A DNA stretch of 62,337 bases, filler included, from Hausera hauseri (lineage: Eukaryota), in NCBI GenBank assembly GCA_046269625.1. It is 12 parts of 12 records of this genome, joined end to end, with 100 filler letters (N's around TTAATTAATTAA, not from the genome) between each part and the next. Parts side by side here need not be neighbours in the genome. Positions count along the whole stretch, not along the records: positions 1 to 4,489 come from JBJURY010557007.1; 11 more parts are not named here. The stretch is one strand, 5' to 3'. The position numbers and the translations under genes are program-made. Below, one piece after another: positions 160-4,489 of the stretch. The notes under the pieces are model-generated. The model saw nothing but the letters and a program-made list of their open reading frames with translations, was not told where the DNA came from and ran no database searches. Numbering within the stretch: the stretch's first letter is position 1; each line of letters starts with the position of its first letter.

Positions 160-1147
160 TAATCTCCTCTACTTCGGAGATTACTGAATTAATAGTTTCT
201 TTTGGTACTTCTTCAACATCTATTTCTTGCCCAAGTCTCATATTCTTTTTCAACCACTTCTCCCTTGCTCCCGTATTACAAATTCTTAAATAAATTTTTC
301 CGTCCCTTATCCTGTCTATATGTGGTGCGATAAGGATGTTGTATTTCTCCATTATCTGAGGAAACGGTTCAAAGTGCATATAATTCGTCAATGATCTGTA
401 TTTTATTTTGCCGGGTACTACTATCTCTGAACGTGGCGAAATTATAACCTCTTTAGTTAATGATACTGATCCTTCATATCGATGTTCAAATGTTTTGAGC
501 TGGCCAGTTTTGACATCTATATACACGTTATCCAATTGCTATAACACATCACATCCAATCAATATTTCATTAATTAGGTTTTTGGCCACTCTTATAGTAT
601 GGTTTATTATCTGGCCGCAGATCTTAATTTTTGTATCCAGAACCGTTTTTATCTCTTTCTCCATACCGAATGCTCCAACGTTAATTAACATTTCTTCAGG
701 CTTTCGTAGTTTACTCACTAATTCTTTGGGTAATTGGCCTTTTCCCATTACTTCGGTAGTGGATCCTGTATCTATTAAAGCCGTTAAGGGATGTCCATCT
801 ACTTCAATATCTATCTCCTGTCGCACTACCGCCTGGAGCTCATTCTTATCATTCGTTTTACATGTAGACCTACGACTATATGACGTAAGATTTTCTTTGT
901 AATCCTTTTTTAAGCGTAGCACTTGGTATGTGGGGTACATTCCTTCATGCTTGACATATTGAGGGGCAGATGGACTTATCAACATTTGTTCGTTATATAC
1001 TTGTCCGTCATATTCGTCTGTAGGATCCAACTGAGGTAAATCAGTAACCAGTTTCAGTTTATACTTCTGCTTCCGTGATTTTAACGAAATTCTTCTAAGT
1101 TTTGTTAAATACCTATCGTTTCGAAACTTGGCATTCGAATCGTTTTG
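160..1147 (-). pseudogene. LTR-retroelement aspartic protease plus post-protease (dUTPase-like) spacer; start of pol, with an in-frame stop at 539-541
   Basis: Retropepsin motifs ALIDTGS and ILIGCDVL. ORF 116-535 continues in the same frame (VIISPRSEIVVPG...LRICNTG), like the PR-RT spacer of many Gypsy pol genes. Confidence 0.8.
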
Positions 1148-3070
1148 TCATTTAGGGTACTATATGGCGAATTCTTCTTAATGTCGTTATTCCTTCCCTT
1201 AAGAACTTTCTTCTTCCATCTTGCGTCGTGGTTTGCTAGAAAGCAACTAGCAACCGCCGGTATTACTGCTATTAGGATTTTCCATGAGCATCCTACTGCT
1301 GCATGTATTCCATAAGCTTTACCAAGTATAGTGAATATCGTTCGTAGAGCACTGATGATAAAATATATTGCTAAAAATCCTGAGGCAGCCTGGCCGAAAT
1401 ATAGGAATTTTCCCCACATCTTTTCCATAACATTTCTTGTGACTTTCTTTAAATAATCTTTTCCCATTAAGTTTTCTCATTGTGCTGAACCTTCGCCGTC
1501 CTACATTACTATTCTTGTTAATTCCGTTATTACTGGTTGTCTCCGCTGGGGAAACAAGAACATTCGCCGATAATCCTGCAAATTCTGCTGTGTATAAATT
1601 CCTCCTTGGAATATGCCAGTAAGGGGTTCAAATTTCTGATTCCTTTGCAAATTAATCAAACTTAACGTTTCTGGCTTCATTACTGGTTCTGTTTTCGGCA
1701 TTCTAATCCATTTATCGCCCAACTTATACATCGGTGACATGTTGAAAGTAAACTTATCCAATTGAGTTGGTCTTGCGTTAGCGTCTATTAGTATTCTGGT
1801 CACCGGCATTGCGTATCGAAGTTCCATATTATAGACTACTGTAATTCTGCAGTACATTCCTCCGTCTGCCTAATTTCTACTGCAATTTTTTACACTCAAT
1901 AGTTGTCAGTACTTCGCCCATCACTCTTCCGATCACCCCATCATCAAATAGCATCACCGGAGCTACCATATCGGGATTGGTTATCGCTAATGCCACCTTG
2001 TTCCGTACTATCTCATAATTCAATTTACATTCTTTCAGTATAATTTCCCTATATAAACTTCTGATCTCTTTTCTGATGTAATTGATTAGAAAGTCAATTT
2101 TATTGTCAAAGTATTACGTTAATTTTATATCCTTGTTCTCTAGTTTTGTTTTAGCTTGGGGTACTTCATTAGTCGAAAGGTATATACCTTTATAATTGGT
2201 TTTGGACATCTCTTCATTACACGTTAATTTTTCCAACGATTTTAAATCGCATCATTTCTTCGGGATTTTCCGAATATACTACCGTTGCTACTTCCGTCAT
2301 TTTCACTTCTTTAGCTCCTTCTTTATATGTCGTAGATTCTTTTTCGGCCGTTTTTCCTAGCGTCCTATTAAATCTTCCTCCTTTAATAACGTGAGATGGC
2401 ATCGGTTCGAACTAACTTCCCATGTCATTTTAGATTCTCCCGTATCACATTCCCCGTTATCATATTTCTATTTACTCATAATTGTCATGAATTTAGTCTG
2501 AGAGTCAAACAATTCTTCATACTCTTTCAATTGAACTTGATAATCTTCGATGGCGACTGTCCTTGGCACTATGGTGCCTCCAACATCGTAATCCACTCCT
2601 TTCCAGGTACCTTTCATTGTTTTACCTATTCATTCTGCTCTAAAAATTCGAGTATATTTTATTTTGCTTTGTACGGCCGGTATCTGTGCGTTTTGTATCT
2701 TTATGACTCCAATGTTAAATGCATCTTGACATTCTGCCAGCGATATTATCATTGGTTCGAAAGGTGTTGTTGGTTCGATAATAGCAGAATTCCCATAATA
2801 ATATGCGCAATTAAATAGGAAGAATGATTTCTTTACGTAACACTCTCGGATCTTAACTTTTATAAATTCCGATTCCTGGTAAACCCAATACCTATGACCG
2901 CTAGTTGTTAGTAATTGATCCGGGTTTGCTTCGGGACACTTTTCTAGATCAACCAATGAGTACTTCTGTCCTTCTTTTGGTTTTGAGCAGTCATAGGCCA
3001 CCACGCCCATGGCTTTAGACATACATATGGATGCTATCAGTAATAACTGTAATATTTCCATGAACGTCAT
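1105..3070 (-). pseudogene. Chuvirus-type (class III, gB-like) envelope glycoprotein, frameshifted
   Basis: Signal peptide then VVAYDCSK..YSLVDLEKC; ECYV..FNC; GECDTGESKMTW..C; YFDNKIDF..ECKL..GRVMGEVLTTIEC; C-terminal WGKFLYFGQAASGFLAIYF..GCSW membrane region. This is the motif order of chuvirus G and related endogenous env genes. Confidence 0.85.
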
Positions 3071-4489
3071 CCCTCTTAAACCTTGTTTTCTAGTACTTGC
3101 TTGTGTCGTGTCTGCTCTTTCATGTGATCCTCCTTCCTGTCTCATTCTACCATTCATTAGACTCGGTATCCATCCATTTCTACATTGTACCCAATTTTCC
3201 AAAGTATCGCGTAAAATGTTAACTCTTACTTTTATGTTTCTTTCAATTTCCTCGAGATTTTGTGTCTGATAGTTAATAACTACAACCTTATATAGTAAAT
3301 AGGCAACAGCCGTTACCACTTTTTCTCTGGTAATACCTGTCATAAACATATTCTCCAATATGTCCTGTTCATGCAATTCGTTAATTCTTTTTTCATTAAT
3401 ATTCTCGTAAAATTGTCTGCTGATTTGTAGCATGCTATTACGCAACGCTTGGAACAGTTCATCAGAAATAGTCACTTGCATGTCGAACGATGCAAATGAT
3501 GTGTATAATTTCGCTAGCAGCGTTCTCAATAATGGGTCTATATCTATAGCCTTTGGATTCGTATCGGTTCCTGCGAATAACAGTCGTCGCACAATTTCTT
3601 CATTCCTGTCTCTTTTATTTCGAATGTCACTTATTCTGGTTCCTTTTGGTCGTCCACTTCTTTTAGCCTCAGTTTGTACAGTAACATCCTGTGTGTCGCT
3701 CATTGGCGGCTCCTCTACTTCCGGTGGTTGCAATTCGCTCATTATATTCTCTATCATTTCTTCGGCTCTTGCGTCGGGATGTATTTCGGTTATCGTGATT
3801 GGGTTATAATTTTTACTTCTACATCCAATTCCAAGGAGTTTATCGTAACCATGTAATGTCCTTCCATAAACATTCAATCCATATACCTTTTCCTTATAAA
3901 ATGGTTCTAATTATTCGATTCTTCCTCGCAATGTTAATATATTATCTGCCTCATTCATCCTGATAACTCTCACATCCTGATTCCCTTCGTTTAACGTTAT
4001 TCTTACAGTTTCATTTCTTCCTTTTCCATCTTCAGCTGCCTTAGCCTGTATTGTCCGTGCTATCTCTCTTATTGGACTAGTATCATGGGCAAGTAATAGT
4101 AATTGGAATAAGATTTCGTTTATCTTAAATGTAGATACCTTATTGTCTATTAATCTTAGTATTGTACTTGTTGCTTGATTTACGTCTATTATATTCTCAG
4201 GATTTATAGCAATTGGGGCTTATATAAGGTCCTCTTCAGCATCCAAATCCACGTCTATATCATGTATTACTTATTCAATGACAATCTCATCGAAGATTTT
4301 TGTACGTTGCACTTCTTTCTCTCTCTCCTCTTACGTGGACTCGCCAGATTTACTTTTCTTTCGTCCTCTTTTCTTTTGTCCTACATTTTCCTCCACAGTG
4401 GTTTCTCTGGATTCCTCCTATTTTATTATCTTTTTATTAATCTTCTTTCTTCCTTGTCGAGGTTTTCCTTCTTCTGATTTTTCTTCTGT
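3071..4489 (-). pseudogene. Unassigned leader region in frame with the glycoprotein; basic/acidic and partly helical
   Basis: ORF 2630-3877 has about 270 aa before the signal peptide, including KRSGRPKG. Degraded K/E-rich coding-like sequence continues to the contig end. Confidence 0.4.

Follow-up and report, generated by a model that had tools for sequence, protein, structure and literature searches.

A fragment of a decayed retroelement occupies the first contig of the window, a 62,337-nucleotide stretch from Hausera hauseri (GenBank assembly GCA_046269625.1). The window consists of 12 short contigs with spacers (N44-TTAATTAATTAA-N44) between them, and the fragment lies in contig 1 (positions 1–4489, GC content 0.37); the contigs beside it are not physically linked to it and cannot serve as flanks of the element. 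Only 4.3 kb of the element lies within the contig, reading on the minus strand from a leader through a glycoprotein (G) and a protease (PR) to a spacer. The element ends on the gag side, upstream on the minus strand, at the contig joint at 4490 and on the other side at a repeat at approximately 164, and gag, reverse transcriptase (RT), integrase (IN) and long terminal repeats (LTRs) are absent from the contig. The features are as follows:

4220–4489, minus strand: charged low-complexity linker, 3' of the missing Gag, in the frame of G, interrupted by four in-frame stops and broken off where the contig ends
4016–4219, minus strand: small conserved helical domain, directly preceding the ubiquitin-like domain
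3782–4012, minus strand: ubiquitin/SUMO-like domain, with one in-frame stop at 3911–3913
3641–3664, minus strand: putative AT-hook-like GRP motif within a linker, read directly
3170–3469, minus strand: Bcl-2-like domain, with BH1/BH2-like helices and a W-x4-GW motif
2998–3070, minus strand: internal signal-like hydrophobic segment at the start of the glycoprotein, from hydropathy
1105–3070, minus strand: envelope glycoprotein pseudogene of the Monjiviricetes/HSV-gB-type class III fusogen family (PF24664, in three pieces)
820–1147, minus strand: linker from Env to protease, read in the frame of the latter; has PSAP (973–962) and YP motifs and covers the last 14 codons of G
530–817, minus strand: retropepsin protease, with LIDTGS at 778–761 and one in-frame stop
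165–505, minus strand: putative dUTPase-like spacer, after the protease and before the missing RT; identity to the matching position of the relative L001, 30%
41–164, no strand assigned: unrelated high-copy repeat, which truncates the element before RT

An earlier reading of the sequence alone (the original prediction) had proposed this order, with a full glycoprotein and no gag between G and PR, and the order was confirmed by matches to PF24664 (Monjiviricetes_fusion) at 3070–1105 followed by RVP (PF00077), with no gag between them. G extends from an ATG at 3070 to a stop at 1105. When stops were read as X for the domain search, three pieces of G matched PF24664 (profile length 653) with E values of 1.7e-14 (4–226), 2.2e-17 (270–385) and 4.7e-35 (402–625). 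The glycoprotein is thus full length as proposed, but it is not intact, as there are 12 in-frame stops across the four X-read pieces of the copy (8, 1, 2 and 1) and tblastn of relatives placed four frame changes inside G, near 2380–2345, 2225, 1885 and 1845. This copy of the element is dead. A hydropathy plot of P0001 contained a single hydrophobic peak (hydropathy window starting at residue 481–482), and an AYDC motif common to the relatives comes after the signal-like segment. Hydrophobic segments with two peaks are found towards the C-terminus of G, at approximately 1389–1234.

The details given for the junction also held. The PR frame is open from 1147 and G stops at 1105, an overlap of 43 nt or 14 codons in the −1 frame; PSAP precedes LIDTGS; and no strict X XXY YYZ slippery heptamer was found within 1100–1200. 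The protease frame matched RVP with an E value of 1.5e-6, its PDB matches were DDI1 and retroviral proteases, and among the relatives it best matched the protease of L001 that comes last and lies nearest RT (E 7e-18). In the window, 213.67 codons separate the WG.F anchor of G from the first DTG, versus 147–390 in nine fused relatives, P0022 and P0030 being left out as they do not include the anchor. PSAP and LYP are both present in the env–protease linker of P0019, as in the linker in the window. The spacer had no Pfam match, while a two-sequence profile of it found dUTPases in all four of its PDB matches, all weak (E 0.57–1.1).

The leader had been listed as unknown, to be checked for capsid or integrase-tail similarity, and it proved to be neither unknown nor a separate unit. 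It shares the frame of G, with one stop-free stretch at 3910–2630, and it shows no integrase similarity, matching Gag-linked domains instead, with ubiquitin-like and Bcl-2-like domains of its own. The nearest relative, P0005, matches along the length of the leader and on into G as one piece (phmmer, query 17–706, 40%, E 4e-132) and has a zf-CCHC domain (residue 197, E 2.5e-4) upstream of the leader-like part. Since a Gag zinc knuckle lies ahead of this region in a relative approximately 40% identical over it, the leader belongs, on sequence comparison, to a Gag-X-Env chain as its C-terminal half and is not an integrase tail. L002 contains a CCHC motif (E 1.4e-5), ubiquitin-like and Bcl-2-like domains and then G.

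The individual leader domains were examined in the same way. The domain at 4016–4219 aligns across the window, P0005, P0010, P0014 and L002, and a model of its counterpart in L002 (1741–1950) contained four helices at predicted local distance difference test (pLDDT) scores of 87–95. Fold searches of the leader did not single out this domain, the matches being filled by the ubiquitin-like domain. It may resemble the TFIIS-N/LEDGF integrase-binding domains. The GRP motif, which we take to be AT-hook-like, had no Pfam match, and an RGRP-type motif is present at the matching position in P0005, P0010 and L002. The Bcl-2-like domain matched positions 4–100 of the 100 in PF00452 (E 4.4e-5) with 24.4 bits, below the cut-off of 31.4, and seven of the 12 aligned members matched PF00452 at E ≤ 0.05. 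All 60 PDB matches listed for profile A1 were Bcl-xL or Bcl-2 (best E 2.6e-4), and all 45 Foldseek matches listed for a weak model of the domain belonged to the Bcl-2 family (best E 0.039). Separately, a lone TGA at 3058–3060 in L002 lies between the Gag–ubiquitin-like–Bcl-2 frame and G, in the same frame, and represents either decay or read-through. Exonuclease-like repeats appear, by eye, to be present at residues ~370–800 of P0014, upstream of its ubiquitin-like domain.

The question of whether G is fused or frameshifted to PR in other copies was addressed using the relatives, most of which are predicted database proteins, while L001 is raw DNA. The Pfam scan took in 29 of the 57 matches together with two cluster mates and L001, and a relative was counted as reaching the end of G if its PF24664 match extended to profile position 585 or beyond (n = 15). 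In 11 of these 15 (P0006, P0008, P0010, P0011, P0019, P0020, P0022, P0030, P0054, P0062 and L001) G continues in frame into protease, and the other four (P0007, P0014, P0053 and P0056) end after G. All six relatives that hold an integrase have the order G, PR, RT, RNase H (RH), IN, and G was not found after integrase in any scanned relative. In L001, one stop-free frame of 3426 codons in the raw DNA encodes ubiquitin-like and degenerate Bcl-2-like domains, G, three proteases, a spacer, RT, RH and IN. The relatives carry RVT_1, RT_RNaseH, Integrase_H2C2 and rve, which is the Ty3/gypsy pol pattern, and none of the scanned polyproteins contained DUF1758, DUF1759 or Peptidase_A17, presumed here to be BEL-type Pfam families. 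No direct repeats of at least 30 nt were detected in L001 or L002, both of which are partial.

Very probably the fragment is what decay and truncation at both ends have left of one copy of a Burro-like Ty3/gypsy retroelement, which when intact would be a single long frame. Under this interpretation the −1 offset between G and PR is most likely a fifth decay break in a single ancestral frame, because the same copy contains 12 in-frame stops and four frame changes inside G. Alternatively, a Burro-like element could use a programmed −1 frameshift between env and protease and so make Gag–ubiquitin-like–Bcl-2–Env in excess over Pol. The direction of the offset agrees with this, −1 being the usual direction of gag-pol recoding, but the sequences around the junction contain one-mismatch heptamer candidates only. 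The 14 codons over which the PR frame is open at the end of G are unremarkable by chance, and the linker in the protease frame has the env-tail motifs of the fused relatives. The indel table from aligning the contigs of one study to the element in 30 bins (run X1) has no row at the junction, though two of the four breaks in G are likewise missing from it. No close intact copy covers the junction; the four relatives ending after G, which would suit a frameshift, are set against the 11 that are fused in frame. A programmed frameshift is therefore considered unlikely.

The remaining explanations separate G from the protease altogether. In one, a deletion or a nested insertion brought together the env end of one element, with an integrase tail as its leader as in BEL/Pao Anakin, and the protease of a different element. 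PMC7642597 does place env after the polyprotein in Roo, Tas and Cer-7, and another repeat has rearranged the 3' end of the copy in the window. However, the Gag-linked leader, a G-to-protease spacing like that of the fused relatives and a junction where no LTR or target-site remnant was seen all argue for continuity, and both L001 and P0005 contradict a chance juxtaposition, which is very improbable. A one-off deletion or nesting, with G after integrase in other copies, was the case that the original prediction had named against itself, and it is excluded by the order in the integrase-bearing relatives. It is also extremely improbable that G is an endogenised glycoprotein gene of a chuvirus or other negative-strand virus beside an unrelated retrotransposon protease. 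PF24664 does include viral glycoproteins, but G was 30–39% identical to the fused relatives and 24–29% identical to the free-standing G of P0053, and in its C-terminal part 32–36% identical to retroelement-fused G versus 25% to P0053. G is also in frame with a Gag-linked leader, an arrangement common to P0005 that contradicts a free viral gene, and no relative was found among the IMG/VR viral contigs.

In the Burro-like element that is the preferred interpretation, the intact chain would run Gag, helical and ubiquitin-like domains, Bcl-2-like domain, internal signal, class III envelope glycoprotein, linker, protease, dUTPase-like domain, RT, RNase H and integrase. The domain order can be read directly in the window and the relatives, and the single frame in L001. 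The whole chain would be made as a single polyprotein, with the internal signal after 3070 directing the G ectodomain into the endoplasmic reticulum, where signal peptidase would cut. The C-terminal hydrophobic region of G (1389–1234) would act as the anchor before the chain re-enters the cytosol, its two peaks leaving several topologies. The protease would then free the Pol enzymes in the cytosol, the Gag-side products would assemble the capsid, and the late-domain-like PSAP and YP motifs on the cytosolic env tail may serve budding. Once cleaved, the signal could remain attached to the C-terminus of the Bcl-2-like domain and hold it in the membrane, in the manner of tail-anchored cellular Bcl-2 proteins. 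Because the retained signal would anchor its C-terminus, the Bcl-2-like domain could limit apoptosis in the producing cell. The copy in the window is itself incapable of any of this.

The published system closest to this arrangement is the planarian Burro/GYPSM1 gypsy elements, for which Arkhipova and Yushenova 2019 (PMC6431247) describe the order Gag, Ubi/SUMO-like, BCL2, in-frame env, PR, dUTPase-like and RT. Env there is a mononegavirus-like fusion protein in frame between gag and pol, and decayed fragments with stops and frameshifts are reported from Dugesia japonica. Compared with this description, all the domains preserved in the window follow Burro order, including a Ubi/SUMO-like domain upstream of BCL2, a BCL2-like motif directly before env and a mononegavirus-like fusion glycoprotein between BCL2 and protease, the dUTPase-like assignment being weak. 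The same account gives Burro a giant size, a planarian host and MATH/TRAF, BIR, ankyrin and Smc accessory domains, whereas the 4.3 kb kept here contains none of these domains. Only ~250 residues separate the zinc knuckle from the ubiquitin-like domain in P0005, so that, unlike Burro-1, this branch looks more compact. Judged from domain order, membership of the Burro group is likely but unproven.

The likeness to Ty3/gypsy lies in the PR-RT-RH-IN order of the integrase-bearing relatives, the contig in the window having no RT. An order of GAG-ENV-POL with a gB-type env is described by Chary and Hayashi (PMC13524379) for errantiviruses of Platyhelminthes, Bryozoa and Nematoda, which are likewise Ty3/gypsy elements with env before pol. 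Six Schmidtea mediterranea C1a env rows in that paper share motifs with G (YQES, EDY/EEY..EL.EY/F, C.TGES and TNY.G.Y.S), by eye and not by alignment, whereas the bryozoan and nematode env rows shown there do not. Those elements are intact and LTR-flanked, whereas this copy is dead and truncated, and the main text of PMC13524379 makes no mention of Bcl-2, ubiquitin, Burro or an exonuclease. A chuvirus/gB-type glycoprotein is also borne by Anakin, the BEL/Pao elements of mosquitoes (Dezordi et al. 2020, PMC7642597), which differ in their backbone from the Ty3/gypsy relatives with G upstream of protease. Identity with Anakin was rejected, as the glycoprotein lies between the Gag-linked leader and the protease and not outside the gag-to-protease interval. 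The nematode endogenous retroviruses (NERV; Sacco et al. 2022, as cited in PMC13524379), which are metaviruses, also have env before pol. Their gag-env-pro-pol frame is reportedly continuous, and they are not known to have ubiquitin-like or Bcl-2-like domains.

The original prediction of an enveloped retroelement with env before pol, or of a G-PR-Pol polyprotein, is thus upheld by the fused relatives and by the absence of any with G after integrase. Its view of the order as an unexpected permutation of a BEL/Pao element with a chuvirus env is not, since the relatives have a pol of the Ty3/gypsy pattern, gag lies ahead of the leader and the order was published in 2019. The gene order is real and not new, and the copy is a divergent addition to a published architecture. 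P0005, L001, L002 and others enlarge this published but little-studied gag-env-pol group, in which the ubiquitin-like and Bcl-2-like cassette is kept across relatives only 20–40% alike, while the number of proteases (one to six Pfam stretches) and the accessory domains vary. The short intact domains of the relatives ease the testing of two questions raised in PMC6431247, namely the block of cell death by the Bcl-2-like domain and the processing of a chain with an internal envelope. It is decidedly unlikely that this is a compact Burro-related lineage outside dugesiid planarians in which a genuine −1 frameshift of non-canonical type couples env to protease, and in which the Bcl-2-like domain, kept at the membrane by the env signal, works as an apoptosis inhibitor. 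Such an element would resemble a retrovirus that carries a viral Bcl-2 of its own and recodes after env instead of after gag.

Run X1, a single study that may come from the source organism, collected 13,987 contigs across all 30 bins, which indicates a multicopy family, and most were <95% alike, which fits an old one. Summed contig depth was 172,620 in bin 1–150 versus 2,850–48,837 in the remaining 29 bins. The repeat at 41–164 has a 93% identical copy at 9454–9577.

Several relatives have features of their own. Tandem aspartyl proteases follow env in P0006, P0008, P0010, P0011, P0054, P0062 and L001 (two to six Pfam stretches or DTG motifs), with transmembrane inserts between the proteases and after integrase in L001. 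P0062 (4844 aa) has added ankyrin (Ank_2) and C2H2 domains. P0020 (HBK71150.1), a polyprotein with the order G-PR-RT-RH-IN, is assigned to a Flavobacteriaceae metagenome-assembled genome; its DNA is most likely eukaryotic and entered a bacterial genome through binning. An exonuclease open reading frame (10617–12107; RNase_T E 1.4e-5) follows integrase in L001, a feature not mentioned in the Burro section of PMC6431247. A frame of 851 codons at 12358–14913 on the minus strand of the window (contig 9454–14914) contains hydrophobic segments and an exonuclease of DEDD type (RNase_T E 5.1e-5) and is 27% identical to this L001 frame (E 5e-17). It is probably the 3' end of the same element group, and a purine-rich tract and TG after its stop near 12345 are possibly a 3' LTR. 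A frameshifted RNase H and integrase at 46171–47859 (plus strand), 37–47% identical to L001 (E 2e-98) and not linked to the G fragment, may represent the end of pol in this group of elements.

Elsewhere in the window, a phage-like contig at 26947–32468 (terminase RNaseH-like domain, phage lysozyme and pectate-lyase-like protein) indicates that the assembly is mixed. Another decayed gypsy element lies within 15015–22157, with RT, RH and IN at 17508–15602. A divergent, intron-free INTS2 fragment in the same stretch, at 20658–21401 (PF14750 E 3.7e-29), for which a word-index search gave no match, points to a fast-evolving animal as host. Decayed pieces at 4590–9353 and 22258–26846 match DNA_pol_B_2 and endonuclease VII and are presumably Maverick/Polinton-like. 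A gag-like frame of 834 codons at 36633–39136 (minus strand, GC content 0.44), with the start of a protease at its end and no Pfam match, we take to resemble fish Gmr1-type gypsy gag. Long CT-rich microsatellite arrays with N gaps occupy 40767–46070, including six 33-nt tandem units at 40910–41140.
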